Shown here one piece after another: positions 18,556 through 54,241 of a stretch of DNA of 55,831 nt. This stretch comes from a bacterium (GTDB lineage: Bacteria > Bacteroidota > Bacteroidia > Bacteroidales > Bacteroidaceae), in the NCBI GenBank assembly GCA_004559785.1, contig SFXD01000001.1:1-55831 (forward strand), in the 5' to 3' direction. The translations under genes and the position numbers were made by a program. Every line of letters starts with the position of its first letter. Position 1 is the stretch's first letter. Below the pieces are notes generated by a model that worked only from the letters and a program-made list of their open reading frames with translations, did no database searches and was not told the DNA's origin.

Positions 18556-18563
18556 CAAAGATA
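18556..18563 (-). promoter_or_regulatory. -7 box TATCTTTG for the M60 operon
   Basis: caaagata on the plus strand, ~25 nt upstream of the ATG at 18531. It matches the Bacteroidota TAnnTTTG consensus. Confidence 0.5.
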
Positions 18564-35340: not shown

Positions 35341-37506
35341 CTAAACCTGCTCAAGGAGGATGACGCAACTGTCATACTCGCCGTTCAGGTTGATTTCCAC
35401 GCCCTGCTGCATGAGGAACTTGCCCGTCATGGTTGCGCCCTCCCAATGGTCGCGCCGTCCGTTGGCGTTGACCTGATTCAGGCGGTATTTGGCATCAGGG
35501 TTGAGTCCGGCGAAGTAGAAACGGGGACGGGGGAAGTTGACAGCCGTCTCGAACCTGTATGCAAAGAAGACGGCCTTGGTCTTCTGCTCGTTGGCGAACA
35601 GCTGGCTGGCAAATCCCTTGCCTTCGTACGGGGAGATGATGCGGTACTGGTCGCCCAACTGTACCAGAGGGCGTATCGTCTCCTTGTAGAGCTTGAAGGC
35701 TCCCTGTGCAAACTTCATCTCCTCTGCCGAGAGGTCGGATGGCTTCATCTCCATGCCAAGCCTGCCCGACATTGCCACGTCGAACCTGAACTTCAGGGGA
35801 ATGCGGCGTCCCGTCTGATGGTTGGGGCTGGCGCTGACATGCTGTGCCATGGCATTGACGGGGAAGTACATGCTCGTACCCCACTGGATGAAGAGACGCT
35901 GCTTGGCATCGGTATTGTCGCTCACCCAGAATTCGTCGAAGTATGGCATCAGTCCGTAGTTAACACGGCCACCACCACTGGCGCAGCACTGGATGACGAG
36001 GTTGGGGTATTTCTCGCGGACACGCTTGAGCGTCTTGACCAGTCCGAGGTGGAAGTCTACGTAGAGGTGGCTCTGCTTGTCGGCGGTCAGGTAATGCGAG
36101 CCGAAGTTGTTGATCTGGTAGTTGTCATCCCACTTGATGTAGTATGTGTTGGGAGTCTCCTTCATGATATTGTCCACCACGCCGAACACGAAGTCCTGCA
36201 CCTCGGGATTGCTCATGTCGAGGCAGAGCTGCGTGCCTCCACGGCCGGGGCGAGGCTCGCGGGAGGGATGGCACACCACCCAGTCGGGGTGCTTCTCGTA
36301 GAGTTCGCTCTTGGTGTTCGTCATCTCCGGCTCAATCCATATACCCCACTTCAGGCCACGTTCCGTACATGCCTTCTCCAATGCGGGGACTCCGTTAGGC
36401 AACTTGTCACGGTCGGTCACCCAGTCTCCGAGGGCACAGTCATCCACGCTGCGCTTGTACTTGCCGCCAAACCATCCGTCGTCCATTACGAAGAGCTCGG
36501 CACCTACCTCCTTCACTCCGTCCATCATCTTGAACATTCCTTCCTCGGTGATGTTGAGGTATACGCCCTCCCATGAGTTGAGCAAGGTCTTGCGCAGCCC
36601 TGTCCCGTTGTGTACCTTGTCGTTGAGGCGGGCCCAGCGATGGTAGCTGCGGCTCACTCCGCCCATGCCCTCGTCGCTGTAGGCAAGGGCAAGCTCGGGA
36701 GTAGTAAAGCTCTCTCCCTTGGCAAGCGTGTACTGCGAATTGGTGTCGTCTATGCCTGCCAGGAGGTGGTGGACCTTCTTGTCGTTGGTGTCTATGGTAA
36801 TGCGGAAATTGCCGCTCCAGCACAGCACGGCTCCTATGGTGCGGCCGCTGTTCTCCTTGGGCTTGCCGTCGAGCGAGAGCATTATGTTGGGACGGTTCTT
36901 GTAGGCATTCTTGGTACCCGTAACGTCGTGTACCTCGAATATGCCCGGCATGAGCGGCTGCTCGGACACCTCCGCCTCCGCACCCCAGTCTCCATGCTCG
37001 TGGCTTACCCACACGTCACCCTGCCTGACGGGCAGGAAGGCACTGGCATACTTGAGTAGCGTGACCGGCTTCTTCTCGCCGTTGCGTATCACGCTCCAAG
37101 CCTCTATGACGTCAGCATTCTGGTAGGCTCTGTAGCATACGTCCACGTAGAAATCATATAGCTTGTCCTTCATGGTGACGGTATACAGCGTGGAGTTTGC
37201 CTCCTTGACCTCGGTATCGGACTGGTAGACAAGTTCCGTACTCATGTTGCCATCCGCATGGCGCACGGACAGGGCAGGGACGAACGTGTCGCTCGTACCG
37301 AAGGCCGGATATGCCTCGTTCCACAGGCTGAAGGCGCGGTATACCTGCTCTGCGTCGGAGATTCGCTCCCCATAGTAGCTGACGTGTAGCGGCTTGCCTT
37401 CCTCTGCCTTGAGGAGAAGGGTCGTCTGGGGTGTACTCACGAAGATGTCCTTGGCTGGCAACAGTGTAGTCGCAAGCAATGCGATAAGGGTTAGTCTCGT
37501 TCTCAT
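35341..37506 (-). CDS. Alpha-galactosidase, GH36
   Basis: ..FVMDDGWFGGKYKR.., ..KWGIWIEPEMTN.. and ..YYIKWDDNY.. are GH36 catalytic-domain patterns. The ATG at 37506 gives signal peptide MRTRLTLIALLATTLLPA and a 721-aa protein. The 79-codon upstream extension in the track overlaps the neighbouring gene. Confidence 0.85.
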   Translation of the reverse strand: MRTRLTLIALLATTLLPAKDIFVSTPQTTLLLKAEEGKPLHVSYYGERISDAEQVYRAFSLWNEAYPAFGTSDTFVPALSVRHADGNMSTELVYQSDTEVKEANSTLYTVTMKDKLYDFYVDVCYRAYQNADVIEAWSVIRNGEKKPVTLLKYASAFLPVRQGDVWVSHEHGDWGAEAEVSEQPLMPGIFEVHDVTGTKNAYKNRPNIMLSLDGKPKENSGRTIGAVLCWSGNFRITIDTNDKKVHHLLAGIDDTNSQYTLAKGESFTTPELALAYSDEGMGGVSRSYHRWARLNDKVHNGTGLRKTLLNSWEGVYLNITEEGMFKMMDGVKEVGAELFVMDDGWFGGKYKRSVDDCALGDWVTDRDKLPNGVPALEKACTERGLKWGIWIEPEMTNTKSELYEKHPDWVVCHPSREPRPGRGGTQLCLDMSNPEVQDFVFGVVDNIMKETPNTYYIKWDDNYQINNFGSHYLTADKQSHLYVDFHLGLVKTLKRVREKYPNLVIQCCASGGGRVNYGLMPYFDEFWVSDNTDAKQRLFIQWGTSMYFPVNAMAQHVSASPNHQTGRRIPLKFRFDVAMSGRLGMEMKPSDLSAEEMKFAQGAFKLYKETIRPLVQLGDQYRIISPYEGKGFASQLFANEQKTKAVFFAYRFETAVNFPRPRFYFAGLNPDAKYRLNQVNANGRRDHWEGATMTGKFLMQQGVEINLNGEYDSCVILLEQV

Positions 37507-37624
37507 TGTGATTGCTGTTTTGGTTGTTAATAGAATAGTCGTTATAGTGATATATAATATGGACAATTTTCCCCTACACATGTCACAATCTGCCATGCAG
37601 AAATATCGGCAATGGTGCGTTTTT

Positions 37625-40330
37625 CTACTCGTCGAGGTCCACGAAGCCAAGTATGGCACGCGAAAGCCTGACAAGATCCGCCCCGTCCACGGCTCCGTCG
37701 CCATTGAGGTCTGCCACCTCCCTGCCGTCCTTTCCCATGCCAAGGACGATGTCCCTCATCAGCGACAAGTCTTCGTAGTCCACTGCTCCGTCGCCATTGA
37801 GGTCCCCCCTTGTGGCATCGCACACAAGAATCGCACACGAAGTGTTTCCCTGCGCGTGTACCTCGCCGGAGTCGTCCGTAATCCTTACGTTCCTTAGCTC
37901 CAGCGTGTATGTGCCCTGTGGCGTGGCAGGCACGGAGCGGAGGGTGATGACGGCGGTCTCCCCGCTGTTTCCTTCGAATGGGATGCCTTTCCTCTGCCTG
38001 CACGTCAGGCGTATCGCTCCGCTGGAGAGCTTGCCGAAGGATAGCGTGTGGTTGTCCGTGGTGGTTCGCTCGGTGCTGAGTTGGCAGATGGGCTTGCCAT
38101 CGCTATCCAATGCCCATTCAATCCCCTCGGGCAGGACTACGTCGGCCTGCCAGGCGCAGAAGGGCTTCTGGTTGTCTACGCACAGCGACACCCTGCCATT
38201 TGCGCCCCGACGGAACACCGGCGGCTGCGCCGAGAAGGAATAGTCCGGCACGGGATGCTCTACCACGAGGCGAACCCTCACGATGGGACTCCATTCCGTC
38301 CCGCTTCTGCTGATGGCACTTACCATGATGGTGTCCGGCAGGTTGTACCAATCCAGCGACTCCAGTATGTCCGCTCCCGACGAGACATGGACCGCACTGG
38401 GTGTGACGGTTCCCGCAGAGCCCTTCATCCACGAGACGGGATCCGCTCCGTCCGTCGTGTAGTATACGTCGTCGCCCGTAATCCTCAGCTCGCTGCCCAT
38501 GTTGACATGAGATGTGGCATAACCAATCGCCCTGCCGTCGAGGCTGAACTCAGGGGCAGGAGCAGAAGGGAACCATCCCCTATCCTGCAACTGCTTGACG
38601 AAAAGCGATGTCCTGGAGGGGAAATAGCTGTTGAGCAGACGCTTGCGTTCCGACTGATACAGGCCGTCGACGGTATATAGGCTTCCCCTTGAAGAATACG
38701 GATGGACGTCACGGCGATAGTCGCCCCACCTGGCCGATTCGTCGTAGAGAGCCATGGAAATGGTGCCATACAGGCTGTCCCAAAGGCAGATGGCAGACTC
38801 CGGCGTTAGTGCTCCTCCATGGAACAGATGACGCTGGGCTGCCTCGTGGAACCTGTGGGCAAAGAGAGGCTCCTTCATCAGGCGGTTGAGGAAACCCGTG
38901 GGGCACCCGCGGTTGTTCTTGTTGGTAAGGTTGTCCGTCTGGGATATGAAGATTGTCTCCGTGTCCCAGCAGATGAAACGGAACCCCTTGTCGGCTGACA
39001 CGCGATTGCGATAGGCGTACCAGTTATGGTGGTCCCAGTCGGAATTGCCGCCGTAGAGATTGATGAGCATATAGTCGATGAAATTGTCTACGTCGAGCAA
39101 CGGCGGGCAGTCGGGCGATGGTTTCCCCTGGCTGTCAAGCCCTATGAGGCGGAGGTAGTTCTCCCTCTTGTTGGGCAGGGTGTATATAAGGTCTGCCATC
39201 TGGTTCCAGGCTTCGAGGTTGCCATAGTCGGCAATGGCGGCATGATAGTTGCCGGCTCCCCCGTCTACCTCCGTAACATCCCAGTCCGAGGCCTTGCCGC
39301 CAAACTTCTCGGCGCAGAAATCGTCCGTGACACGCTCGCACATGTTGTATAGCCCCCAATACATCCCGTTGATGAAAAGATGGGCATAGCGTGCAAGGCT
39401 GACGGGATGCCCCATCTTGGCTTGGGCGTAACGTGCCCACATGTCGCGGCAGTACTGCGCCTTGCTTCGCTGCGTGTTGTCCCAATGGGTCCACGAATAA
39501 CCGAAGAAGGTGCGGAGAACGAGAGCATTGTGGACAGCCGGACCGCTTTCCCCAAAGACGGGGTAGCGCAACTTGGATGGGCCATAGTCTCCCTTGAAGT
39601 GTAGGCGGAATGCATGCTTGGGATTCTTCTCAGGCAAGCGTCCGTGCCCGCCATGCAGCTTGATGCAGCAGTCTACGGTAAGGTCGTCGTCGGATGGTCC
39701 GCCAAAAAGCTCAAAGCTGACGGGACGTTCCCACCCCCTGCCTATGCCGTCGCCTACGGGACACCCGGTATAGATGTAGATGCCGCCGCGTTCTTCATCC
39801 CTTTCATGGCTGAAAAGATTGTCCTTGTCTGTCACTATGGATATGACCGGCAGGTCATGAAGGCCCTCCAGCATCTTGGGACGCAACTCCGGGTCACGCG
39901 TCAGGTCGGGGTCCATGCCGTAGTCGGCTATCGCCGTCCCCTGTATCTGGCAGTAAGGCCCCCACAATGCGGGATAGCCTGCAGGCTTGTCCGTCTGGTC
40001 AAGGATGCTCTCGGGAAAGAGATAGGATGCTGTAGTGACATTGCTCCAGATGCCGTCTGACAGTAGGGTCGCTGCCCTGACAACGGTGGTGGAACTTACG
40101 GGGAGAGGCTCGTCGAAACGTGTTCCGCAAGTACGGGGGTCACTACCGTCGAGCGTGTAGAACAGTTCTCCCAGCGGCTCGGTGGTTGACACGCTTAGCA
40201 CGAAAGGCTCGTCGTACAAACCATGGGAGTGACTGAAAAAGGGCTCTTGCGCCATTGCCGCAAAAGGCAAGGACGCAAGAGTGAAAACAAAATTATGAAT
40301 TAAAGAATCTATTGCCTTGTTACCAAACAT
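37625..40330 (-). CDS. CotH-family protein: Fn3-associated/CHB_HEX_C-like module, CotH, Fn3-associated-like module, cohesin-like module, dockerin
   Basis: 901 aa with a signal peptide ending ..FAAMA/QE. The N-terminal module is ..LFYTLDGSDP..VVRAAT... CotH core patterns are ..FRLHFKGDYG..LVLRT..YAHLFINGMYWGLYNMCERV..NFIDYMLINLYGGNSDWDHHNWY... The cohesin-like block covers residues ~697-841. The dockerin duplicate is GDLNGDGAVDYEDLSLMRDIVLG...ADLNGDGAVDGADLVRLSRAILG. Confidence 0.75.
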   Translation of the reverse strand: MFGNKAIDSLIHNFVFTLASLPFAAMAQEPFFSHSHGLYDEPFVLSVSTTEPLGELFYTLDGSDPRTCGTRFDEPLPVSSTTVVRAATLLSDGIWSNVTTASYLFPESILDQTDKPAGYPALWGPYCQIQGTAIADYGMDPDLTRDPELRPKMLEGLHDLPVISIVTDKDNLFSHERDEERGGIYIYTGCPVGDGIGRGWERPVSFELFGGPSDDDLTVDCCIKLHGGHGRLPEKNPKHAFRLHFKGDYGPSKLRYPVFGESGPAVHNALVLRTFFGYSWTHWDNTQRSKAQYCRDMWARYAQAKMGHPVSLARYAHLFINGMYWGLYNMCERVTDDFCAEKFGGKASDWDVTEVDGGAGNYHAAIADYGNLEAWNQMADLIYTLPNKRENYLRLIGLDSQGKPSPDCPPLLDVDNFIDYMLINLYGGNSDWDHHNWYAYRNRVSADKGFRFICWDTETIFISQTDNLTNKNNRGCPTGFLNRLMKEPLFAHRFHEAAQRHLFHGGALTPESAICLWDSLYGTISMALYDESARWGDYRRDVHPYSSRGSLYTVDGLYQSERKRLLNSYFPSRTSLFVKQLQDRGWFPSAPAPEFSLDGRAIGYATSHVNMGSELRITGDDVYYTTDGADPVSWMKGSAGTVTPSAVHVSSGADILESLDWYNLPDTIMVSAISRSGTEWSPIVRVRLVVEHPVPDYSFSAQPPVFRRGANGRVSLCVDNQKPFCAWQADVVLPEGIEWALDSDGKPICQLSTERTTTDNHTLSFGKLSSGAIRLTCRQRKGIPFEGNSGETAVITLRSVPATPQGTYTLELRNVRITDDSGEVHAQGNTSCAILVCDATRGDLNGDGAVDYEDLSLMRDIVLGMGKDGREVADLNGDGAVDGADLVRLSRAILGFVDLDE

Positions 40331-42467
40331 CCTCTGGGGTCATTGGGTTGTCGTAAATCTCCTTGGGACACCATTCCATGTAGTCCATGTAGAGTTCCTT
40401 CTTCTCGGAATCGAGTACTGACTTGAACCTTACATAGTAGGTCTCGTTCGGGTCGAGTGTCTCACGGACGAGGATGTGACGTGTCTGGCGGCTGTCGTCA
40501 CGTGCCGTCAGTGACACGTTCGACTCGTGTACCTCGTGGCGCGCAGCCTTCATCAGTCCGTGGTTGCGCAGCTTGTGGTCTACGTCGATTATTCCGTCCT
40601 CGTCCCTGCCGGAATCGTCAAGGTCTGCCCACGTCGCACTCTCTCCGAAGGAATCCACTATTCCCTTGGTCATGTCGATGGGGATACCTGCCGCATGCAG
40701 GCGGTCGGGGTCGTTGCCGAAATAGATCTGTACTATGCCACGAGCTCCGGTGGCAAGCGTCTTGTAGCGGAGTTCGTACGTACCGCGCTTCGGGACGGGT
40801 GGCAGCGTGAACATGATGTCGAAGCGTCCGATAGCCTTCATCTCGTCCTGCGTATAGTTTGCCCAGTTGATTCTATAGCCATTGAAATAGATGAAATTGG
40901 TCTCATCACTCAGTATGCTCATGTTGTCGAAATACTGGTAAACCTTGTTGGCAGGTATGTAGACGTGCTGGTACTTGTCTTCCTGCGAGTCGGCGCGGCG
41001 GATGCCATTGGTGATGGCCTCGGGGAAGAGAGCCATGCCGTCGAAGCGGATTCTCTCCTTGCCCAGGTTGTCGCGGGTCGCATTGTCGTATGCCAACGGA
41101 GCGTCAATGGGATAGATGCAGGCATTCTCGATGTCCGTGACGTTTGCAAGTTCGTCCTCCCTCATCACGAGGCAACCAACCTTGTCCACGTCACAAGAGA
41201 GCTCATGACCGGTTCCGTATATGCCATTGTCGAGGTTGGGGAAACGGTTGAGGTAGACTCCCTCGCTTTCCTTTGATTCGAAGAGCTTCAGCAGACGGCG
41301 CTTGCCCATGGTGGGATACCATTCGAAGACGGGTATTGAGTAACGCGTTGGGGTGGTGATGCTATAGCCTACCTCGTTGCAATGATAGACGAGCTTGTTG
41401 GCAGGTATGCGCATGGGCAGGATGTGGTATGTTGCCCATTGGTAGAGTATATGGTTTTCCGAAGAGAAATTGTCGTCGGTGAGGAAAGTCTCTTCAGTCA
41501 GGTATTTCTGGTTGTCGATTATCCATTGTGTCACCTTCTCTGGCACGTCGGATGCAAGAGGGTCGATACCCTGGCTGCGCCAGAAATCATCCTTCTCCGC
41601 AAAGAGGGTGAACCCGTACTTGCGGTGCTCGGGGGAAATGGCGTCAGAATTGCTGTTGCCGCTCTTGTCAGAGAATCCCTTGGACATGTAGTCCTCGAAG
41701 TCCTCTATCTCTCCGTTCTGGTATTTCATTTCGTATACCTCGTCCCGGATGAGCGATAGTTCCTTGATGAGGTCGCAAGCCTGAAGGCACTTGAAGAAAA
41801 CGAGCAGTCCCTCTTCCCTCTTGTCAAGTATCTCCTGGATGTAAATCGTGCAATTGATGTCCTTGGGTGCTATTACCTTGTGGACCTGGTGTATCACACC
41901 GTTGATGAGGGGAATATCCCTGTTCTTTCCGTCAATGGCGCACTCTCCATTGATGTAGAGACTGTCTGGCATGTTGTTGGGCCATGTTATCGTCAGTTTG
42001 TGATCGTTGATGTTGGGCAGCGGAAGTTCGGAGTTCTGCTCCGTAGGCAACATGGCGAGCGTATACCGCTGCGATTCGAGGTCTCCTCCGTCGATGATGG
42101 AATTCTTGACGATTACCTGACGGATGGAGTCAGCCTTGTGCTCGGATGGGAAGCCTTCCCAAGTAGGTTCAGTGATAAGCCCTTCCTCTACAAGCTGCCC
42201 GAAATACGTCTTTATTGCATCGTTGGTGGGGGCAAAGCAGGTGTAATTCCCCCTTGCGGTCAACAGCTGGTATACTGTCGACTTGCTACGAGGACTCATT
42301 GGCACGACCTTGGTCATTTCCAAGTATTCTGAGTAACATGGCTGCGACTCAAGGTAACTCGCTACGGTATGGTCTACGAACACGTAGCGTGCAGAGGTAT
42401 CTATCTCCTCCTTGCATGACACCAAAGCCATTGATAAGGCGATGAACGATAGGAAAAACTTTCTCAT
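40320..42467 (-). CDS. Fasciclin (FAS1) domain lipoprotein with a large uncharacterised C-terminal region
   Basis: 715 aa with lipobox ..MALVSC/KE. The FAS1 signature is ..LLTARGNYTCFAPTNDAI... Its stop overlaps the downstream CotH start by 11 nt. Confidence 0.65.
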   Translation of the reverse strand: MRKFFLSFIALSMALVSCKEEIDTSARYVFVDHTVASYLESQPCYSEYLEMTKVVPMSPRSKSTVYQLLTARGNYTCFAPTNDAIKTYFGQLVEEGLITEPTWEGFPSEHKADSIRQVIVKNSIIDGGDLESQRYTLAMLPTEQNSELPLPNINDHKLTITWPNNMPDSLYINGECAIDGKNRDIPLINGVIHQVHKVIAPKDINCTIYIQEILDKREEGLLVFFKCLQACDLIKELSLIRDEVYEMKYQNGEIEDFEDYMSKGFSDKSGNSNSDAISPEHRKYGFTLFAEKDDFWRSQGIDPLASDVPEKVTQWIIDNQKYLTEETFLTDDNFSSENHILYQWATYHILPMRIPANKLVYHCNEVGYSITTPTRYSIPVFEWYPTMGKRRLLKLFESKESEGVYLNRFPNLDNGIYGTGHELSCDVDKVGCLVMREDELANVTDIENACIYPIDAPLAYDNATRDNLGKERIRFDGMALFPEAITNGIRRADSQEDKYQHVYIPANKVYQYFDNMSILSDETNFIYFNGYRINWANYTQDEMKAIGRFDIMFTLPPVPKRGTYELRYKTLATGARGIVQIYFGNDPDRLHAAGIPIDMTKGIVDSFGESATWADLDDSGRDEDGIIDVDHKLRNHGLMKAARHEVHESNVSLTARDDSRQTRHILVRETLDPNETYYVRFKSVLDSEKKELYMDYMEWCPKEIYDNPMTPEDVW

Positions 42468-42595: not shown

Positions 42596-45500
42596 TTACT
42601 TTACGAGATACTTCTTGCCATTGATGATGAAGATGCCCTTGCCAGCCTTGCCTACACGCTGTCCGGAGAGGCTGTAGATAGCCTGACCTGCATCGTCGGA
42701 TGCTGTCTCTATGGCATTTACGCCGTCAACCAGATCGTCGTCGTTGCACTCGTCGGCCGTGATTACGATGACGTTGCGTATGCAGATGGTCTCGTAGCTC
42801 TCGTTGTTGCCGAACAAATCCCAGCGGATTACATTGTCTGAACCTCCGAAGTTCCATGTCTCCACAGCCTTCGTTATGTCAACGTAGGCTTGCTTCCATT
42901 CGCTGGTTGCTGGCATTGCAGCAGGTGCGAGCTGGTAATTTGGATTGATGGAAGGCGTACCGAAGTAGAGAACGCCGTTGTTGGCATCCTTCTCTGTCTT
43001 GTACTCGTAAGCAAGGATTATGCGGTCGCTGGTGAGGTTGTCGTAGAAGCCCTTGAACGTTACGTTCGGACGCATGCCGTTACCTGTCAGCTCGTACTCG
43101 AAGTCGGCTGTCTCACTTGCTGTGACATTGGTCTGCTTCTCCATGTCAACGTAGAGGTAGTCGGGATAGAGTTCGTAGAGGGCGTCGATGGCAGCGAGTG
43201 CCTGCTCGCCAGTCTCGTACTCTCCTGCATCGAGCTTGTCGCAAACAGCATAGATGTCGGCATCAAGGGTCCCATGATTCATGGAGTGATTTATCCACTT
43301 GTCGTATACCTTGTTCTTTGCAATGTATAGTTGGTTGTACGCCTTCTGGCAATCCAGCACGTTCTGGAAGAGTGCACCGTCGGTAACCAGGTCATTGTAG
43401 GTAGTCTGACCGGATATGGCGGCAAGTGCCTCCTTAGTTGCGGCAGCAAAGTTAGGAGCCTCGCTGAAGCTGATGTCGTATGCCAACTCTGGAACGTAAG
43501 AGTTGCAGAGAGTGTTGGCGCGCTTTGAGTTGTAAGCGACTGCCTCTGCTATGGCATTAGCAGCATCATCCTCTGTCTCACCAAGGTAAGCAAGACGGAA
43601 GTTACCAGCCACTGTCCAGCTGTTGCGGTTGATGGTTCCCTCGCTCTTCAGACCGAAGGTGAGAGTGCCGTCGGTTACCTTAGCAACCATAGGAATCTCA
43701 TAACGACCTGCTGCAAATGCATAAGAAGAACCGATAGTACCCCATACCACGTAACCGAGAGTATCGGTTTCATCCTCGGGATTGATAACTGGTCTGTCGG
43801 GATGAGTGTCGCCTAACCATGCGTCTGCAGGATTTACAGCCATATCCTCGATGACCGTCTGAACGAACGTAGCAGCATCGTTGGCATAGGCGATAGGTGC
43901 GTACGTGTAGGATGAAGACGTAACGGTATCCTTTTCCTGACGGAAGGCTGCATTGAGCCTGAGCTGGTAGTAACCGTCCTTCAGACCTGTGAGAGTCTGG
44001 TTGATGTCGAACAAATCCTGAGTCTCGCAGAACTCGGCTGCATAAATCTTGCCGTCCTCGTTGGTTCCGCTCTTGTAGAGCAGTCCGTCCCATCCTTCTG
44101 CCTTCGTACCGCCTTCAACGCTCTCAGTCTTGGCGAATGTGCGGTTGACGATGAGCGAGCTGATATCCGTACCAGCCACGTAGCCCAAGCGTACGGCAGC
44201 AAGCTTGAGGCTCTCAAGATAGTCAACCTCAGCCAATACTGCGCTGTCAGCCAGTTCGTGGTTCTCTACGATATAAGGAGCAGAACCGTTGGGGAAGCCA
44301 TCCTCAGAGGGCTCTACGGTTGCGGTAAGGTAAGACTGGAGGTTTGCAAGTGCGTCGGATTCTGTCAGCTTGTTGGCTTCCAGATATTCCTTCACACCGT
44401 CTACGGCTGCCATATACTGTCCGTAAACCTTCTCGCTTGCGAGTATCTTCTGCTGCAGCTGCTCTATCTCGTAGTTGGTGCGGAAGAGAACCTCCATGTT
44501 GACGCACTCGCCGACTTCAGCGATCAAGCCTTCGTAGGCATCAATCAGAGCCTGGGTGCAAGTCACGTTGTATCCGAACTCCTCTGCCTTGGCAATGTAG
44601 TCGTTCTTGATTTCGTCGAACTCTTCCTCGGTACCGAAGCGGAGTTCCTGCATCTGGATTGCACTGCCGGAATATGCCTCGTATACCACAACCTTATAAT
44701 ATGTATAGGGAACGGTTGTCTCGGAACTGAAGCCGAAGTATGAAGCCGTCAGGTTGGCAGGATTCAGACGCTCCTGGCCTACGTTGACCTTCTCGTCTAC
44801 AAGTACCCATCCCTCGGAATCCTTGGTGGCAAGTCCGTCACCCTCGAAGTTGGCTCCATAGATGCTCCACCTCTTCCAGTTACGACCCTGATAGTCATAG
44901 GTGTCTGCACCGGTGGTGAGGGTATAGAAGAATGGATTTACGGCCTCCAGCGTACGGAAGATGACGTAAGTATCGCCCACGCTGCTGCACTCGCCACCCC
45001 ACTTGGTCTCGAGGCTGTTGTCCACGATTTGCTTGTAGTGTCCGTCGCCCCACTGGCTGTTGGTGTGGCCATCGAGCACGATATAGCTATCCTCGTAGAG
45101 GGCACTCATGTACATATTGATTCGTACGGTCTCCTTCTCCAGTTCCTCGTCGGAAATGGTGCGGTTGGTGACGATGTACTCGTATGTTCCGTTAATGTAT
45201 GCTGCAGAAGGGCCTTCGTTCTGCTCCGCATAGCCCGTAGCCCAGGCATAAACCTGCTCGTAGTCTGCGAAGTCTCCGGGAGAGAAGAGATCCATTGCCT
45301 CTACGTACTCCATCCACTTGGCATTGGAGGATGCAATCTTGGTGATGAGTTCCTTCAAGGTGTTCTTTGCTGCTATGAGCGAAGGAGCATCTGCGGCATT
45401 TGACATCTTCTCGTAGGTGCTGACATACTGCTCGTAAAGAGAGATGTTGCAGAGTGTGTTCTCGTCTATAGCATCAAGTCCGGCATCCATAATGGACTGC

Positions 45501-47542
45501 TCCAGTTCGATGACAAACTCTTCGCGCTGCTCGTTGAGGTTACCCTGGTTGTAGAATGTCAGCTCGTTCATCTGCTGCTTGTCGCCGCCGGAGTTGATTA
45601 CCTCGACCTTGAAGTACTGGTACTCCTCGGTTGGAGGATTATTGAGATTGATGAAGTTCTCGTAAACGTTCTCTGCCTTGAGGATTTCTGTACCTACGTT
45701 TGTCCTCTTGTCTATCAGTACCCAACCCTCGGCATCCTTTTCGGCTGCCTCGTCGCTATCGAAGTTACCGGCATAGATGTTCCAATCCTTCCAGTTACGG
45801 CTCGGGTTGCTCTTGGTGTCACCACCCGTTACCAGTCCGTAGTAAGAAGGCTTGATGGGATCAGAGCTCTTGAATACTATGAACCAAGGCTTGGGTCCCT
45901 GATTTTCTCCAGAACCAGAGCACCACTTTGTACCTGTCTTGTCACCATCTATGAGCGAGCCATGGCTCTCTGCATCGCTGAAGCCTCCGCTACCAGACAG
46001 AGCCTCGTAAGTAGCATAGATGGGGTCAATCTGTACGGCGTAGTTATTGTTGACAAAAACGAGCAACCGGTTTGTCTCTTCGGAAACCTCCTCTGTAGTC
46101 AACTGCCTGTTGGCCTTGACGTACGCAAGGTTACCTACGGGGAATCCATCGCCTGGAGCGATTGCCTCCTCTCCGGCATATTTCTTCAGATACTCCGTAG
46201 CGGCAGAGTTGAGCAGTCCGTCGTTGACAGCATTCAAGGCTATTGCAACCTGCGTCACATAGTCGTCGTATGCCTTTACGTTTGCAGCATACAGTGTCTT
46301 CTGATTATCGAGATTCTTCAACAGGGGGTTGAGCGCAGTGGCGGATGTCTGAGTCTTGATAGACTCAACCAACGCCTGACTTTCTTCAACCATTGCCTTT
46401 GATGCGAATGCGGTGAAGTCGAACTTGCCCACCCACGCATTGTAGGTGTCATCGAGCTGGAGCTTAAACGTTGCGTCGTCACCGAGTGCGAACTCCGTCA
46501 TCTGCATGTAGCCGCTGGTTCCGCTCATGATCTGGCTGATCTCTACCTTGAAGTAACGGTACTTCTTGGTGTTCTCCTCAGAGAGTTCCATGAATACCTC
46601 GAAACTGTTGAGGTCGGGCAGAACTTCTTCGGTAACGTCAACCTTGTTGTCCAATAGCTGCCAGCCCTCATGGTCGCGGGTAATCTCTGATTCGGGCACA
46701 TCGGCAATGCCATAAATCTTCCAGTCCTTCCAGTTGCGATGGTTCCATGCTGCGTTGTCTGTACCTGTCACAAGCTTGTAGTAGGTGGGGCAGATGGAAC
46801 GTGAAGTCTTGACAATGAAGTAAGGCTTGCCGTCTATGCCATTACCCCACTTTGTATTGTAGTTGTTATCGAAGAGAGACTTCAAACCCTCTCCGTCATT
46901 GTTGTTACGTGTTCCAGCGAGGATGCTGTATTTTATCGGCTCATCCAAGGGAGATTCACCACTTGTATATGCGTTGAAATCGTCTGCCGTTCCCAGTCCG
47001 AACTCGTCCATCTGGAGCCATACATCAGTGCCCTGAACAGACTCGGAGATACGGATGTAGTAATAAAGGTACTCTGTAGTGCCGTCGGCCTTGTTAAACT
47101 TGAAGTCTACCACCTGTGCGTTGGCTGCAGGGAGTGGCTCGTCGACACGCTGGTCGATGAGTGTCCAGTCGGCATCCACCGTTGCCTCCTCGTCGGATGC
47201 GAAGTTTGCAGCGTAGATGTTCCATGTCTTCCAGTTGCGACCCGGATTGTTGCCCGTGTCATTTCCCGTTACGAGGAAATAGTTGGTGGGTACTACTGCC
47301 TTCTTGGCCTTCATGATAATCCAGGCCTCGGACCTTTCGGGGTTGTTTGGGTCGAAGGAATGTCCCATCTTGGTGAACTTGTCTCCGTCCACCAATTTGG
47401 CATAACCCTCACCACCTGTTCCACCAGTTCCTGATAATGCTGTCAGCCTTACGTATTCTGCCGACGCATTCTGGGCTGAGAGCAGCATCATTGCAGATGC
47501 CAGCGCCAGCCTTACCTTGTGAAGAAATGTAGTTCTCTTCAT
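42596..47542 (-). CDS. 1648-aa T9SS cargo with four discoidin (F5/8 type C)-like modules separated by helical linkers
   Basis: It has a signal peptide. The repeated module ends in NWKTWNIYAANF, NWKDWKIYGIAD, NWKDWNIYAGNF and NWKRWSIYGANF, each preceded by DGD/DN..TKW(G/C).. and followed by ..YYKVxV..MxExxFG. The C-terminus ..AIYSLSGQRVGKAGKGIFIINGKKYLVK is T9SS CTD-like. Confidence 0.7.
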   Translation of the reverse strand: MKRTTFLHKVRLALASAMMLLSAQNASAEYVRLTALSGTGGTGGEGYAKLVDGDKFTKMGHSFDPNNPERSEAWIIMKAKKAVVPTNYFLVTGNDTGNNPGRNWKTWNIYAANFASDEEATVDADWTLIDQRVDEPLPAANAQVVDFKFNKADGTTEYLYYYIRISESVQGTDVWLQMDEFGLGTADDFNAYTSGESPLDEPIKYSILAGTRNNNDGEGLKSLFDNNYNTKWGNGIDGKPYFIVKTSRSICPTYYKLVTGTDNAAWNHRNWKDWKIYGIADVPESEITRDHEGWQLLDNKVDVTEEVLPDLNSFEVFMELSEENTKKYRYFKVEISQIMSGTSGYMQMTEFALGDDATFKLQLDDTYNAWVGKFDFTAFASKAMVEESQALVESIKTQTSATALNPLLKNLDNQKTLYAANVKAYDDYVTQVAIALNAVNDGLLNSAATEYLKKYAGEEAIAPGDGFPVGNLAYVKANRQLTTEEVSEETNRLLVFVNNNYAVQIDPIYATYEALSGSGGFSDAESHGSLIDGDKTGTKWCSGSGENQGPKPWFIVFKSSDPIKPSYYGLVTGGDTKSNPSRNWKDWNIYAGNFDSDEAAEKDAEGWVLIDKRTNVGTEILKAENVYENFINLNNPPTEEYQYFKVEVINSGGDKQQMNELTFYNQGNLNEQREEFVIELEQSIMDAGLDAIDENTLCNISLYEQYVSTYEKMSNAADAPSLIAAKNTLKELITKIASSNAKWMEYVEAMDLFSPGDFADYEQVYAWATGYAEQNEGPSAAYINGTYEYIVTNRTISDEELEKETVRINMYMSALYEDSYIVLDGHTNSQWGDGHYKQIVDNSLETKWGGECSSVGDTYVIFRTLEAVNPFFYTLTTGADTYDYQGRNWKRWSIYGANFEGDGLATKDSEGWVLVDEKVNVGQERLNPANLTASYFGFSSETTVPYTYYKVVVYEAYSGSAIQMQELRFGTEEEFDEIKNDYIAKAEEFGYNVTCTQALIDAYEGLIAEVGECVNMEVLFRTNYEIEQLQQKILASEKVYGQYMAAVDGVKEYLEANKLTESDALANLQSYLTATVEPSEDGFPNGSAPYIVENHELADSAVLAEVDYLESLKLAAVRLGYVAGTDISSLIVNRTFAKTESVEGGTKAEGWDGLLYKSGTNEDGKIYAAEFCETQDLFDINQTLTGLKDGYYQLRLNAAFRQEKDTVTSSSYTYAPIAYANDAATFVQTVIEDMAVNPADAWLGDTHPDRPVINPEDETDTLGYVVWGTIGSSYAFAAGRYEIPMVAKVTDGTLTFGLKSEGTINRNSWTVAGNFRLAYLGETEDDAANAIAEAVAYNSKRANTLCNSYVPELAYDISFSEAPNFAAATKEALAAISGQTTYNDLVTDGALFQNVLDCQKAYNQLYIAKNKVYDKWINHSMNHGTLDADIYAVCDKLDAGEYETGEQALAAIDALYELYPDYLYVDMEKQTNVTASETADFEYELTGNGMRPNVTFKGFYDNLTSDRIILAYEYKTEKDANNGVLYFGTPSINPNYQLAPAAMPATSEWKQAYVDITKAVETWNFGGSDNVIRWDLFGNNESYETICIRNVIVITADECNDDDLVDGVNAIETASDDAGQAIYSLSGQRVGKAGKGIFIINGKKYLVK

Positions 47543-47773: not shown

Positions 47774-50700
47774 TTATTGCCCCTCAAGGAGAATCAATCC
47801 CACGAGTCCTGCAATGTCTGCCTCTCCGATAATCCCATCTCCGTCAATGTCTGCGGCACGCTTGTCACAAGCTAAGGACGAAGTGCCGCGCACCACATTG
47901 ACAAGAGTCACGAGGTCGAGTCCGTCAACCTCTCCGTCGGCATTCACGTCACCCAGCAAATACGAAGGCTTGACTACGCCAACCACACATGTCCCCATGG
48001 CACTACCCCACCCCGGGGCACTTACCTGGACTGAAGCCTGTCCCTCGGCTACTGCCTTTATAAGCCCCCATTGGTCAACACGGACCACGCCGGGGTCTGT
48101 AGACTTCCAGAAGAGTCCTGCATCCGACATGTAGTCGGGCTTCACCACCGCCTCAAGACGGAGGGTATCGCCCTCCTCGAGTGTACACTCTCCGTGGGAC
48201 AGCACAATGTCCGTTACCTCGCCCACGGGTGAGGAAAGACTGTAGTCGTACGGGGTGAAGTTCTCTGTCCCTATCTCGGTAATGTCCTTGCGGATGTCTA
48301 TCTCCACCCACGACGGGTCGTCCGGGTCGCTGGTACTCACATTGGAGGCACACAGTGTCCAGGTCGAGGGGTTGCGATCGGAGTATTGTCGAGAATCGTT
48401 GGCACTGTATATCCTGTAGCCACTGACGGGAATCGCCTTGCCTGCGTCGAAGAAGAAACAGGCGTTGCCGTTGAACTTGCCAGAACAATACTTGGTGCCT
48501 GTGTCGTTGTCAGCCAGGTTCCCCCAGTTCTCGCTACCGATGTTGCTCTCTGTTCCTGCATATATTGAAAGGTCCTCCACCTCGCCTCCTGCATTGTCGA
48601 GCAGGTCAAACTCCGAGAACTGGATTGTCCCGCTATTGCCATCGCGTATGCGCGTTATACATAATTTATAATATCGGTAGCCATTTACTCCATTGCGAGG
48701 CGTGTTGGTATATCCCGTTGACGTGCGATAGACCTGTGCGCTCGAAGGCGAAGGTGTGGGGTAAGGGTCGTGGGCGAGTCCGTTGTCGAGGTTCTGCCTC
48801 CAGTAGGAATAGCCAGCCTCTGCATTGAGGATGAAGCACAGCTCGCCCGACGCTACCTGCAAGGGTGTAATACTCCGTGCCTTCGACGGCATTATGTCGT
48901 GGCAGTTGGCAAGGGACAAGTCCTTAGTGGTCGAGGCAAAGCAATCGCCGTCGCCGCCCGTTGATACGATGGCGGCATTGTAGCAGTTGGCAAGGCTTAT
49001 CTTGCCTGCCGACGGTCCAACTAAAGAGGCTCCGTTTTCTGCAGCCTTCACGGCACCTACGTTGTAGCAGTTGCTGATGTTCAGCGTGGCAAGCAGGCGG
49101 CTCATGCCTACAAGTCCTGCTGCATAGGTGCCCGATGCCGTTACGGTAGCTGCAGAGCTGCAGCCCTGTATGTTGATGATACCGTTGCGCACCTGACCTA
49201 TGAACGCCGACACGTAGTTGCTGCCGCTGAAACTGCACGATGCGGCAATATTTACGTCACGCAGCGACATTCCTGCACCCACTATGCCGAAGAGACCCAC
49301 GTAGTTGGAGCCTTCAACACGGAGGTTACTTATTGTGTGCCCCTGCCCGTCGAACTGTCCGCAATATGGCTTGGTAGGATTACCTATAGGCTTGAAGCGA
49401 TCGGAGTATGCCTCCATGTCTACGTCGGCGCATAGCACCGCCGAGGCAGAGGTGTTGCCATTGGCAACGAGTTCGGAGAATAGGCAGAGGTCGCGCGGAG
49501 TGCCAATCTGATATATGCCGCCCTCTTCCGTCAGGGCATCATAGCCCAGTTTCTTGTCCATCCATGCCACGCGGTCGCGCACGTAGTTGCGCACGACGTC
49601 CACCTCTGCCTCCCAGCTTCCCCTGATGGCAGGCGTGAGGCTAATGTATTGGTTGAGGTAGGGCCAGCGTATGAAATTGAGGTTGGCAGAGGCACGCATC
49701 TCGTTCCGCAGCGAGTCTACCCCTCCTGCCACGTCAAGGCTGTTGAAAGCCCCCTCGTCGCGCAGCCTTGCCCAGAGCTGCCTCAGTTGCGCCATGGCAT
49801 TGGGGTCTGACAGGATGCGAGAGACGAATGTTCCCCAGCGTCCTGTCTCGCGAACAAGATAGGTCCAGTCCTCGCGGCTGTTGCCTGGGTAGACGGTAGC
49901 GTCGTCGTCCAGTGCCAGCTCATGATCCCATACAGGGCCTGTGTAGAAGTGGTCGTCTCCCCTATCCTTGTACATGAACACCTGGCATATCATGTCTGTA
50001 TTGCCGTTGAACTCGCTTATGAGGAAGTACTTTAGGAAAGACTCCAGGTCGAGCACCGAGCGGAATCCCTTGTCCGTATCGGTATAGTCATCCCCGAATA
50101 CTATGTCCTCCATCTCGTTGAAGGCTGTCTTGATGTACGCAAACTGTTCGGGTTGCATTATGTCGTCATCAGGGTCGTGGACGCTGATTGGGTTTCCATG
50201 GCGTGTGGTGAAGTTGTATGGTTCGCGCCCGGCATTGTTGTCCACCTCTACGAAATAGCCTCCCGTCAGAGCCTCGCCCTCTATGTCCTCCTCGTACATT
50301 TCTGTTATATCTATACGTCCCGAGTGTACAGTCACCTGGTCGGCTATGGTGTACGTGCCGCGGTAGTCTCCGTTGAGGATAAGGTCTACTGGCTGGTTCC
50401 ATGGCGTAAACTTAGGTCCAACCCTCTTCGACACCTGCCATGCTACGGGATTGCGCATCAGGGTCTTGTCGCGGTAACTGTTGAGCAGCACCCATTTCTT
50501 CGCTTTCACGGGAGACTCGTTTGTGGTAGAACCTTTCATGATGTGGTGGCTCTTGCCGTCGTTGAACTTCACCCTGTATGGCTTGTTGGGAGGGGTAGCC
50601 GAGAAATTGCCCCTCACCCTGGTCAATATCGGGTACTCCTGTATCATGGTGCCGTCCTCGTGGATGAGGGTGTAGTGTGACTCGAAGTCCTCGCCTCGCA

Positions 50701-51298
50701 CCGTAGGTACGGCTCCGTCTGCCACATGGATGCTGAGTGTAGGAAGGTTGGTGACCTGATAGAACCTGCTGTCGTCGCCCTCGCCCTCATGGCCGAAGAA
50801 CTGCAGTTCGGCAACGTTGCAGTATGACCCTGCTCCACCTACGTAGCGTACATAGCGGAACCCACGGCTAACGTTGATATCTACGGTGGTGGACTTGCCC
50901 GCCGTAGGAGCCTCTGAGATTAGGTATAGAGGTACGGCGTCCATGAAGGTAGAATCGTTGGCTCCCTCAAACAAGGAAAGCAACATACGGTCGGGGCCTA
51001 CCGACAACGGGGCAGGAGTGTAGGAAATACGGGTCACCACATGCCGGGCTCCAAGGTCGAGTCCCACCCACTGCATGTCTGCTGCCGTGGTCCTGTAGTA
51101 TGTGGCGGCATCTGCGTCGAAAGCATTCTCTGCCATGGTTGCCGTGCCAGAGGACAGTATCTTGCCTGTAAGTTCTACATCCGTCGTTTCGTCGAATGCC
51201 ATGGCAGAGCTGTATGCCATTGGACATAGGATGGCAAGTAGCATGGCACGTAGGATTGGCTTGATGCGCCGTGAGCAGTATTTGTTAGTTCTATTCAT
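47774..51298 (-). CDS. CotH-family protein: F5/8C, CotH, GLUG repeats, discoidin-like module, Big_2-like module, dockerin
   Basis: 1174 aa with a signal peptide. The CotH core is ..KAKKWVLLNSYRDKTLMRN..LILNGDYRGTYTIADQV..FLKYFLISEFNGNTDM..VFMYKDRGD..GPVWDHELA... The GLUG block is ..CGQFDGQGHTISNL..VGLFG..AAGLVG..NCYNVGAV... A second discoidin-like module is ..NDTGTKYCSG..NPSTWTLCASN... The Big_2-like block is ..TLRLEAVVKPD..WKSTDPGVVRVDQWGLIKAVAEGQASV... The dockerin is GDVNADGEVDGLDLVTLVNVV...ADIDGDGIIGEADIAGLVGLIL. Confidence 0.75.
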   Translation of the reverse strand: MNRTNKYCSRRIKPILRAMLLAILCPMAYSSAMAFDETTDVELTGKILSSGTATMAENAFDADAATYYRTTAADMQWVGLDLGARHVVTRISYTPAPLSVGPDRMLLSLFEGANDSTFMDAVPLYLISEAPTAGKSTTVDINVSRGFRYVRYVGGAGSYCNVAELQFFGHEGEGDDSRFYQVTNLPTLSIHVADGAVPTVRGEDFESHYTLIHEDGTMIQEYPILTRVRGNFSATPPNKPYRVKFNDGKSHHIMKGSTTNESPVKAKKWVLLNSYRDKTLMRNPVAWQVSKRVGPKFTPWNQPVDLILNGDYRGTYTIADQVTVHSGRIDITEMYEEDIEGEALTGGYFVEVDNNAGREPYNFTTRHGNPISVHDPDDDIMQPEQFAYIKTAFNEMEDIVFGDDYTDTDKGFRSVLDLESFLKYFLISEFNGNTDMICQVFMYKDRGDDHFYTGPVWDHELALDDDATVYPGNSREDWTYLVRETGRWGTFVSRILSDPNAMAQLRQLWARLRDEGAFNSLDVAGGVDSLRNEMRASANLNFIRWPYLNQYISLTPAIRGSWEAEVDVVRNYVRDRVAWMDKKLGYDALTEEGGIYQIGTPRDLCLFSELVANGNTSASAVLCADVDMEAYSDRFKPIGNPTKPYCGQFDGQGHTISNLRVEGSNYVGLFGIVGAGMSLRDVNIAASCSFSGSNYVSAFIGQVRNGIINIQGCSSAATVTASGTYAAGLVGMSRLLATLNISNCYNVGAVKAAENGASLVGPSAGKISLANCYNAAIVSTGGDGDCFASTTKDLSLANCHDIMPSKARSITPLQVASGELCFILNAEAGYSYWRQNLDNGLAHDPYPTPSPSSAQVYRTSTGYTNTPRNGVNGYRYYKLCITRIRDGNSGTIQFSEFDLLDNAGGEVEDLSIYAGTESNIGSENWGNLADNDTGTKYCSGKFNGNACFFFDAGKAIPVSGYRIYSANDSRQYSDRNPSTWTLCASNVSTSDPDDPSWVEIDIRKDITEIGTENFTPYDYSLSSPVGEVTDIVLSHGECTLEEGDTLRLEAVVKPDYMSDAGLFWKSTDPGVVRVDQWGLIKAVAEGQASVQVSAPGWGSAMGTCVVGVVKPSYLLGDVNADGEVDGLDLVTLVNVVRGTSSLACDKRAADIDGDGIIGEADIAGLVGLILLEGQ

Positions 51299-53260: not shown

Positions 53261-54241
53261 ATGGAATACATAGGCTTACATACGCAACAGGTTCGCAACA
53301 ATCTCAAGAGCCTGTTGCTTTTACTTTTCTTCCCCCTGATACTGATGGCTCTCGCCTACTCCATCATCCTTCTCCTTTCCTACTACGAGTCTGGCAAGAC
53401 TCCATACATGTGGGAACTCAGCTACCAGATGTCCCTGCGAGCCGCACCATGGATAGTAGGCATAGTTGCTGTGTGGTTCTGCCTGGCATACTTCACGAAT
53501 ACAGCTATGGTCAGGCACGCCACCGGGGCAAGGCCTCTGTCGAGGAAGGAGAATCCCAGGGTGTACAACATCGTGGAGAACCTTACCATGGCGTGCGGCA
53601 TGAACATGCCTAAGGTCAACGTCATCAGCAGCCCCGAGCTGAATGCCTTCGCAAGCGGCGTGGATGACAGGTCATATACCGTAACCCTTACAACCGGAAT
53701 CTGCGAAACCCTTAACGACGACGAACTGGCAGGTGTGGTAGGACACGAACTAACGCACATACGCAACCGCGATACCCGCCTACTCATCATAAGCATCATC
53801 TTCGTTGGCATCATCAGCATAATATTGCAGTTGTCCATAGAGGCTCTGGTCAGGTCACCGTATTTTTCCTTGCCCAGCAGGAAGGAAGAAAAGAACAATG
53901 GGGGCATTATCATTGTCATGGCATTCCTGTTGGCTGTCATAGTGGCTTCCTCCGTCGCTTATTTCCTTACCTCCCTGACGCGCTTTGCCATCAGCCGCAA
54001 GCGCGAATACATGGCAGATGCCGGTGGTGCGGAACTTTGCGGCAACCCTCTCGCCTTGGCTTCTGCATTAAAGAAAATCAGCAACAAGCCTGGGTTGGGT
54101 AACGTTGGCAGGGAAGACATTGCACAATTGTACATTTGCCGCCCCCGTTCCCTAAAGAGTGGCTTTGCATCTTTCTTCAACTCCCTGTTCAGCACTCATC
54201 CAAGCATTGAGAGCAGGATTGCCTATCTGGAGCAGTTCTGA
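53261..54241 (+). CDS. M48-family zinc metallopeptidase (HtpX-like membrane protease)
   Basis: 326 aa with TM helices flanking the zincin motif ..VVGHELTHIRNRD.. and a distal ..EYMADAGG... It starts 2 nt after lemA. Confidence 0.75.
   Translation: MEYIGLHTQQVRNNLKSLLLLLFFPLILMALAYSIILLLSYYESGKTPYMWELSYQMSLRAAPWIVGIVAVWFCLAYFTNTAMVRHATGARPLSRKENPRVYNIVENLTMACGMNMPKVNVISSPELNAFASGVDDRSYTVTLTTGICETLNDDELAGVVGHELTHIRNRDTRLLIISIIFVGIISIILQLSIEALVRSPYFSLPSRKEEKNNGGIIIVMAFLLAVIVASSVAYFLTSLTRFAISRKREYMADAGGAELCGNPLALASALKKISNKPGLGNVGREDIAQLYICRPRSLKSGFASFFNSLFSTHPSIESRIAYLEQF

Follow-up and report, generated by a model that had tools for sequence, protein, structure and literature searches.

A divergent cohesin fused to a dockerin at the C-terminus of a secreted CotH protein from Bacteroidales

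Can a single secreted protein of a Gram-negative bacterium carry both halves of a cohesin-dockerin pair, and what would such a protein dock? This question is raised by a CotH kinase-like protein of 901 amino acids (aa) encoded in a 55.8-kb stretch of Bacteroidaceae DNA (GenBank assembly GCA_004559785.1, contig SFXD01000001.1, positions 1 to 55,831; "the window" below means this whole stretch). An initial annotation had proposed that the protein ends in a cohesin-like module of about 145 aa, followed immediately by a duplicated dockerin. We found that its last 205 residues form a true, though divergent, cohesin in rigid fusion with a dockerin, and that this unit is a conserved dyad of a large Bacteroidales family, not a chance fusion. 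The family is essentially without annotation, and such units probably assemble surface protein complexes. The gene and its parts are located as follows.

37625..40330 including the stop codon, - strand: the 901-aa CotH open reading frame (ORF), which encodes a signal peptide, CHB_HEX_C_1/Fn3_assoc, CotH, a conserved stretch without assignment, the cohesin and the dockerin
40250..40330, - strand: predicted signal peptide of the Sec/signal peptidase I (Sec/SPI) type, aa 1-27, read by eye from the sequence as MFGNKAIDSLIHNFVFTLASLPFAAMA and followed by QEP
40022..40222, - strand: CHB_HEX_C_1 / Fn3_assoc, aa 37-103 (Pfam, E 8e-13 and 6e-13)
38714..39421, - strand: CotH kinase-like domain, Pfam core match aa 304-539 (84.7 bits against a cutoff of 23.8, E 1e-23)
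37811..38245, - strand: divergent cohesin, aa 696-840, with predicted strands in aa 697-837 (homologs, profile, AlphaFold2 (AF2) and Foldseek)
37805..37825, - strand: cohesin-to-dockerin junction, aa 836-842, VCDATRG (family spacing and alignments)
37628..37807, - strand: dockerin, aa 842-901 (Pfam Dockerin_1, dockerin hidden Markov model (HMM) of the family, AF2)

The positions first assigned to the two modules, 37808-38242 for aa 697-841 and 37628-37807 for aa 842-901, were correct.

Identity of the two C-terminal modules

The cohesin was not detected by direct searches. The Pfam model of cohesins, PF00963, gave no match at E<=1 in the whole 901-aa protein or in its C-terminal 234 aa. It also gave no match on the module alone (aa 690-841, used as the query; residue 1 of the module numbering is aa 690), on which NCBIfam likewise returned nothing. 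A word-indexed homolog search with the single module returned only one near-identical fragment. By exhaustive phmmer with aa 690-841, 1825 representative proteins were collected at E<=1e-3, 613 at E<=1e-10 and 29 at E<=1e-30; the family was therefore made visible only by exhaustive search. Many of these proteins hold 2-13 copies of the module. An artefact or chance as the source of the module was ruled out by independent homologs with E values down to 1e-54. In a single-sequence phmmer search of the PDB, a similarity to the Est-Y29 esterase was seen and rejected as spurious, as it covered 16 residues only.

The homologs connected the module to known cohesins. Some of them pass the Pfam Cohesin cutoff exactly at the module positions (P0008 with 45.9 bits, P0015 with 35, P0017 with 28.6 and P0019 with 25.5). 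In an alignment of the query module with 39 homologous copies (A1), 29 of the 39 copies matched PF00963 at E<=0.01, while the query itself did not. The cohesin profile, recommended as a check in the initial annotation, thus detects homologs but not the module itself. When the A1 profile was compared with the PDB, the top matches were all cohesins; the first was Ruminococcus flavefaciens ScaB Coh5 (5n5p, 1.9e-5), and further matches were ScaB Coh7 (4ums, 5e-3), Clostridium thermocellum OlpA (3ul4) and the cohesin of Clostridium perfringens NagJ. The window module scored 150.9 bits against the HMM of the family.

The predicted fold gave the same answer. AF2 with A1 produced an all-beta model of the module with a predicted local distance difference test (pLDDT) of 95.6 and a predicted template modelling score (pTM) of 0.88. 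In a Foldseek search of the PDB with this model, cohesins of types I, II and III made up 47 of the 50 top matches, with probability 1.00, E down to 4e-8 and template modelling scores up to 0.76-0.81. The model and its matches display the nine-stranded jelly-roll beta-sandwich of about 140-150 aa that characterizes cohesins, and not the Big or FN3 sandwich considered as an alternative in the initial annotation. By transitive Pfam homology, PDB profile search and predicted fold, the module is a true cohesin but a divergent one: no other copy in the family is more than 35% identical to it.

The dockerin was recognized directly. Dockerin_1 (PF00404) matched aa 842-894 with 34.9 bits in the whole protein and 37.4 bits in the C-terminal 234 aa (cutoff 22.9), and the dockerin HMM of the family gave 69.9 bits. 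The Ca-binding repeats are DLNGDGAVDYEDLSLMRDIVLG (aa 843-864) and DLNGDGAVDGADLVRLSRAILG (aa 874-895), and the Ca2+ loops of both, DLNGDGAVDYED and DLNGDGAVDGAD, are intact. The two repeats of about 22 residues, each with a D-x-N-x-D-G-x-x-D-x-x-D loop and then a helix, have the form of a dockerin, and AF2 placed helices at aa 852-862, 870-873 and 883-893 with a dockerin pLDDT of 86-95. A canonical duplicated dockerin directly after the cohesin, as first proposed, is thus what this protein carries.

The cohesin has also kept a putative recognition motif. In the alignment of the family, columns Q39, D41, P45, G47, F96, G101, G117 and Y119 (module numbering) are invariant or nearly so, and the motifs noticed in the initial annotation, Q.D..LP.G, F.G..G and G.Y, fall on these columns. 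Q39 is conserved in 89% and D41 in 84% across the family. In the window protein, the conserved Q728-x-D730 (module Q39 and D41) lies on strand 3 and R774 (module R85) on strand 6. Few polar strand residues are as conserved as Q39, D41, R85 and S90, which sit on the neighbouring strands 3 and 6; D41 covaries with R85. Q39-x-D41 was aligned with the N-x-D of the type I cohesin ScaB Coh7 (4ums) on strand 3. In C. thermocellum cohesins, recognition of the dockerin centres on the N-x-D motif. Subtyping of the family cohesins by their strand-3 motif gave no segregation by position in the protein.

The cohesin-dockerin dyad and its possible partners

Is the neighbourhood of the two modules a property of this protein or of the family? 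We ranked the family proteins by summed score and analyzed the best 149 representatives, a list enriched for multi-copy proteins. A dockerin was present in 126 of the 149, and a cohesin was followed by a dockerin within 20 aa in 120; the commonest architecture was Coh-Doc-Coh (80/149; Coh, cohesin; Doc, dockerin). Of 146 family junctions, 111 have a distance of exactly 8 residues between column 140 of the cohesin HMM and the first Asp of the Ca loop, and so does the window protein, from L835 (column 140) to D843, as read from alignments. The linkers from dockerin to cohesin were 11-22 aa long and variable in sequence. The nearest neighbour of a cohesin belonged to its own positional class for 117 of 149 pre-Doc cohesins and 85 of 105 post-Doc cohesins. 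Cohesins therefore cluster by position across different proteins, indicating that the cassette is inherited as a unit. By whole-domain identity, the window cohesin was assignable to neither the pre-Doc nor the post-Doc class. An AF2 model of the dyad (aa 690-901, alignment A2) reached pLDDT 94.3 and pTM 0.80. Compared with a pTM of about 0.66, our own rough estimate for an unplaced 60-residue dockerin, this value points to a defined relative orientation of cohesin and dockerin in the model.

Such a rigid dyad might be purely structural, in the manner of an X module: the cohesin would be a rigid support for the dockerin or bind it in cis, only the dockerin would connect to other proteins, and the cohesin face would be unavailable to them. 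The junction fixed at 8 residues, the confident relative placement of the domains and the separate positional class of the pre-Doc cohesins are all compatible with this arrangement. In addition, the second cohesin of Coh-Doc-Coh proteins follows only 11-22 residues after the dockerin, so a closed intramolecular arrangement is geometrically conceivable. However, the pre-Doc cohesins retain the Q-x-D and R signature of the other positional classes, no covariation between cohesin and dockerin pointed to a specific cis interface, and it is hard to see what the minimal proteins of the family, which consist of signal peptide (SP), cohesin and dockerin, would do in a self-closed state. We consider a structural role of this kind somewhat unlikely.

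We infer instead, with fair confidence, a model of binding, partners, cellular location and stoichiometry in which the dyad is a Ca2+-dependent docking unit: the dockerin would plug the CotH protein into a cohesin partner, and the cohesin would be the socket for another dockerin protein. The CotH protein would be exported by the Sec/SPI route. Its dockerin would then bind the cohesin of another protein in trans and in a Ca2+-dependent manner, the partner probably being a cohesin protein with a C-terminal tail (described below) that is encoded outside the window. Its own cohesin would offer a docking site to the 1174-aa CotH-Big_2-Doc protein encoded 7.4 kb upstream, or to another copy of the CotH protein itself. 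The CotH proteins would in this way become adaptor-like members of a multiprotein assembly at the surface or in the envelope.

The 1174-aa protein comes into this model by its own dockerin.

47774..51298, - strand: 1174-aa protein with F5/8C, CotH, Big_2 and Dockerin_1 (Pfam)
47777..47950, - strand: second dockerin, aa 1117-1174 of this protein (Pfam, family dockerin HMM)

This second dockerin had been noted in the initial annotation, and it proved to be real. When the six-frame translation of the window was searched with the family dockerin HMM, exactly two dockerins were found, on the 901-aa and the 1174-aa proteins. The inventory of the window is one cohesin and two dockerins, with both dockerins on CotH proteins. 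Within the window, the dockerin of the 1174-aa protein and that of the CotH protein itself are the only candidate ligands for the cohesin.

The dockerins of the family show a further regularity. Their two repeats covary at positions 9, 10, 11, 13, 14, 17 and 18, with a mutual information after average product correction (MI-APC) of 0.51-0.87 over 147 units; this strong covariation of equivalent positions means that the repeats evolve together throughout the family. Positions 10, 14 and 17 carry the same residue in both repeats in 87%, 89% and 81% of units, and this identity is the internal symmetry associated with dockerins of dual binding mode. The dockerin of the window protein is asymmetric at positions 10, 11, 14, 17 and 18 (Y/G, E/A, S/V, R/S and D/R), suggesting a single binding mode; symmetry of this kind is not required of a dockerin.

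Several results weigh against the docking model. No partner cohesin is encoded in the window: when the 55.8 kb were searched with the family HMM set to maximum sensitivity, no other cohesin came up, and hhalign gave probabilities of 3% and 0.1% for a cohesin in the 1648-aa protein encoded between the two CotH genes and in the 1174-aa protein. No covariation between cohesin and dockerin rose above that of shuffled pairings (top value 0.251, shuffle maximum 0.227; MI-APC over 147 Coh-Doc dyads, effective number of sequences 88). Inferences made at the level of the family may not transfer to this protein, because its cohesin and dockerin are both outliers. The protein might also stay in the periplasm, because it has neither the tail that 77 of its orthologs have nor a recognised signal for export across the outer membrane. 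Lastly, the exposed residues of the 8-3-6-5 sheet as a set were not more conserved than those of the 9-1-2-7-4 sheet (p = 0.38; the orientation of side chains was inferred from the sequence pattern).

The negative outcome of this sheet-wide test would also be expected if the cohesin-fold module were not a docking site but a beta-sandwich that binds a ligand, such as a glycan, or serves as a spacer, and that targets CotH to host glycans. Cohesins and many carbohydrate-binding modules (CBMs) share the jelly-roll topology, and a glycoside hydrolase of family 36 (GH36), a BNR sialidase, a peptidase M60 and an F5/8C domain are encoded in the neighbourhood. However, the top sequence and fold matches were all cohesins, with no CBMs among them, the module tightly co-occurs with dockerins (126/149 proteins), and the conserved Q-x-D is aligned with the recognition motif of cohesins. 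A glycan-binding or spacer module is therefore very unlikely in our judgement.

C-terminal tails, partner genes and export

Where would a cohesin partner be found, and how would the CotH protein reach it? In related proteins, a C-terminal tail of about 30 aa with the consensus YDLxGRRVxxPxKGxYIxNGKKxxxK was observed. In the cohesin family, 38 proteins end in a dockerin and 89 in the tail, and none has both. The tail is also the C-terminus of 77 of the 80 CotH orthologs and, in the related loci, of 49 further ORFs. The cohesin is absent from all 80 orthologs, and only in two, those of L059 and L073, is the tail replaced by a dockerin. In the window, the tail is found on the 1648-aa protein (42599-42715, - strand; tail HMM E 1.3e-9) and on the M60 peptidase (14347-14448, - strand); on the 901-aa protein, which ends in its dockerin, the tail HMM found nothing.

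The tail was not recognized as a C-terminal domain (CTD) of the T9SS (type IX secretion system) by NCBIfam TIGR04183 or by Pfam PF18962 (E<=10). When its profile was compared with the PDB, it matched the C-termini of a rumen arabinanase (4kca, 5e-11) and of a beta-helix protein (7jvi, 6e-7). The next four matches were structures of the RgpB T9SS CTD, with sub-threshold E values of 0.06-0.3. From these similarities, a sorting role of T9SS type is plausible for the tail.

The minimal proteins of the cohesin family are SP-Coh-Doc (about 205-220 aa) and SP-Coh-tail. A small cohesin gene came directly after a dockerin-bearing gene in each of the four contexts that we examined.

L083: a 921-aa cargo-Coh-Doc protein, then SP-Coh-tail
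L084/L085: LRR-Coh-Doc-Coh-tail (LRR, leucine-rich repeat), then SP-Coh-Doc
L086: a Coh-Coh-Doc protein, then an SP-Coh-tail-like protein
L087/L088: LRR-Big2-Coh-Doc-Coh, then SP-Coh-Doc, then dockerin-terminal LRR and DUF285 proteins

The pattern recurs next to CotH orthologs.

L001 (Bacteroidales RUG12173): a small SP-Coh-tail gene, seemingly frameshifted, and a CBM26/CBM77-DUF285-Doc protein
L005: a Coh-tail ORF beside a dockerin ORF
L073 (Prevotellaceae RUG13180): GH98-Doc, PL11-Doc (PL, polysaccharide lyase) and CotH-Doc

The SP-Coh-tail gene of L001, upstream of the CotH ortholog at 5837-6611 (+ strand), is split into two overlapping frames, 5837-6238 and 6186-6611, which reflect either a frameshift or an assembly error. 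The four dockerin-terminal genes of L073 (292-3516, 3513-5942, 8252-10636 and 14997-15239) encode a GH98 with CBM35, the CotH ortholog, a PL11 rhamnogalacturonan lyase and a fragment. This cluster suggests that there are dockerin-tagged carbohydrate-active enzymes (CAZymes) in Prevotellaceae, and, given its GH98 and PL11 dockerins, a cellulosome-like system may exist elsewhere in the clade.

These neighbourhoods bear on another possible use of the dyad, raised in the initial annotation: self-polymerisation, in which the dockerin of one CotH molecule would bind the cohesin of the next to form head-to-tail chains, as proposed for Amy4 of Ruminococcus bromii. The presence of cohesin and dockerin in one polypeptide is compatible with such chains, the rigid junction may prevent self-capping, the outlier status of both modules would fit a private cognate pair, and Amy4 is an experimental precedent. 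On the other hand, separate Coh-tail or Coh-Doc genes in the neighbourhoods point to hetero-partners, and across the family the cohesin does not covary with its adjacent dockerin, a result that neither proves nor excludes self-binding in this protein. We regard self-polymerisation as unlikely.

Of these proteins from metagenome-assembled genomes (MAGs), Pfam finds the dockerins and misses the cohesins. Copies that are clear to the family HMM and missed by Pfam Cohesin are those at 37811-38245 (- strand) of the window, 7157-9919 of L083 and 6482-7864 of L086. Because PF00963 misses this subfamily, surveys that count PF00963 matches probably undercount the cohesins of Bacteroidota.

The export of the CotH protein depends on its start codon, on which public gene calls differ: the ORF is called with 901 aa or with 876 aa from M26 (window 40255-40330, - strand), and the signal peptide is present only in the 901-aa form, which is also the one that overlaps the upstream fasciclin gene. 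We favored the 901-aa start because the orthologs align from about aa 9-15. Cleavage of the predicted signal peptide after aa 27 would expose an N-terminal Gln, and a Gln after the cleavage site is the Q-rule of Bacteroidetes (PMC5837995). The gene of the 901-aa protein is also called in ENA assemblies, and its cluster at 90% identity has 86 members, for which the only name given, where there is any, is "CotH kinase family protein". An NCBIfam scan of the 901-aa protein added nothing to the Pfam domains, and a second CHB_HEX_C-like domain in aa 590-700 was not confirmed. A plasmid search with the CotH gene by megablast gave no match.

Taken beyond this protein, the docking model becomes more tentative. 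Bacteroidales of gut and rumen could possibly own a widespread cohesin-dockerin system of rigid dyads and Coh-Doc-Coh cassettes that is largely invisible to domain models. Proteins ending in a dockerin in place of the sorting tail usual for the lineage, here the two CotH proteins, would reach the surface and stay on it by docking onto tail-bearing cohesin proteins, and the CotH-Coh-Doc protein of the window would be an adaptor that recruits a second CotH. In this wider picture, docking might already take place in the periplasm, and the dockerin proteins might be exported as passengers of a T9SS-like route.

Genomic surroundings and known systems

In what kind of bacterium does this protein occur? 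The 1174-aa, 1648-aa and 715-aa proteins and the 901-aa CotH protein are encoded in this order in a co-directional block, which is followed by GH36 and BNR sialidase genes. The other features of the window are listed here.

42596..47542, - strand: 1648-aa protein between the two CotH-dockerin genes; no Pfam domain at E<=1e-3
40320..42467, - strand: 715-aa protein with a fasciclin domain; 11-nt overlap of its stop with the start of CotH
35341-37530, - strand: GH36 alpha-galactosidase; no dockerin
33350-35032, - strand: BNR sialidase; no dockerin
14344-18558, - strand: 1404-aa peptidase M60 with a ricin-type lectin domain; no dockerin
2046-8533, - strand: type V pilus cluster with two Fimbrillin_C proteins, an Mfa2-like anchor and a DUF3868 protein
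53261-54241, + strand: M48/BlaR1-like peptidase at the end of the window, adjoining the next gene
54281-55732, - strand: 483-aa protein with a Rep3_N initiator domain and DnaA_N

Because of the overlap of 11 nt, the fasciclin and CotH genes are probably co-transcribed. A TolC-like OEP, HlyD and FtsX are also encoded in the window. The M60 peptidase with its ricin-type lectin domain, the BNR sialidase and GH36 suggest foraging on mucin or host glycans. The Rep3_N/DnaA_N protein and the M48/BlaR1-like peptidase may mark a mobile or plasmid-derived segment.

We found 80 orthologous CotH loci in MAGs of Prevotellaceae and Bacteroidaceae. The nearest orthologs, 48-65% identical, all came from MAGs of rumen or gut Prevotellaceae, Bacteroidaceae or Bacteroidales. 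From the gene content and these closest orthologs, the bacterium is a diderm member of the Bacteroidales whose genes lean towards host glycans, and the Gram-negative setting assumed in the initial annotation is right. In 10 related loci, a homolog of the fasciclin protein is encoded close to the CotH ortholog. At E<=1e-10, the 80 loci had no homologs of the 1648-aa protein, the 1174-aa protein, GH36 or the sialidase; only the fasciclin protein recurs.

Among known systems, the closest in plan is the amylosome enzyme Amy4 of R. bromii, whose cohesin is accompanied by a self-recognising dockerin and for which binding has been demonstrated by experiment (PMC4611034). Both proteins are secreted chains with a cargo or catalytic module, a cohesin and a C-terminal dockerin, and such a chain can be a client and a docking platform at once. 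Amy4, from a Gram-positive Firmicute, carries a GH13 amylase as cargo and was found by experiment to recognise itself. In contrast, the window protein belongs to a diderm Bacteroidales, its cargo is CotH kinase-like, and its cohesin abuts the dockerin by a fixed 8-residue junction. The 901-aa protein thus combines cargo, cohesin and dockerin in one chain as Amy4 does; the set of a multi-cohesin scaffoldin and dockerin-tagged CAZymes that makes up a cellulosome was not found in the window.

Adaptor scaffoldins, such as ScaA of Acetivibrio cellulolyticus and ScaA of R. flavefaciens, likewise have one or more cohesins and a dockerin in one chain and serve hierarchical assembly, and cohesins of adaptor scaffoldins were among the Foldseek matches of the window module. 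The classical ones differ in having several cohesins, flexible linkers or an X module before the dockerin, and no enzyme-like cargo. Scaffoldins of this kind are anchored by SLH domains or sortase, not by a C-terminal tail of Bacteroidota type. A beta-sandwich directly before a dockerin is also found in the X-dockerin dyads (CipA X-DocII and CttA XDoc), where it is rigidly packed against the dockerin; the fixed junction and the pTM of 0.80 are analogous. Unlike in those dyads, the preceding module of the window protein is a cohesin that retains a putative recognition motif. The C. perfringens proteins NagJ and NagH (2jh2, 2ozn, 2o4e and 2vo8), which were among the best matches, are also non-cellulase, host-glycan-active proteins with cohesins and dockerins. 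Cohesin-dockerin pairing is well established outside cellulosomes by such examples. These pairs, however, are Gram-positive and toxin-associated, and their cohesin and dockerin are usually on different proteins.

The cargo, too, has precedents. The dockerins of anaerobic fungi have an unrelated fold. Proteins with CotH and a dockerin are known in the cellulosomes of Firmicutes and of anaerobic fungi (PMC12484212). There, the CotH-like domain is likewise delivered by a dockerin into a multiprotein complex, and no adjacent cohesin is reported in the text read (PMC12484212). In rumen metagenomes, dockerins and a small number of cohesins assigned to Prevotella or Bacteroides have been counted (PMC6487960, PMC6071333, PMC9763041). 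The novelty claimed in the initial annotation was thus overstated, since CotH-dockerin proteins, cohesins and dockerins of Bacteroidetes, and Amy4 were already known; the Gram-negative host held true. A literature search of incomplete coverage found no description of a native cohesin-dockerin system of Bacteroidota, of a fixed dyad, of a Coh-Doc-Coh cassette or of the alternative C-termini. What the protein carries is a true cohesin-dockerin pair in the unusual form of a rigid dyad, with an unusual cargo, in a Gram-negative lineage, and belonging to a large family that domain models mostly miss.

Cohesin-dockerin assembly has so far been understood almost entirely from the cellulosomes and amylosomes of Gram-positive bacteria. 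If the dyads are functional, the dominant Gram-negative phylum of gut and rumen would have a modular surface-assembly system of its own, which would carry adhesin-like LRR proteins, CAZymes (GH98 and PL11) and CotH kinases. This raises the question of how proteins that end in a dockerin and have no sorting tail cross the outer membrane. Designer protein assemblies would also gain a new building block from the rigid Coh-Doc junction of fixed length.

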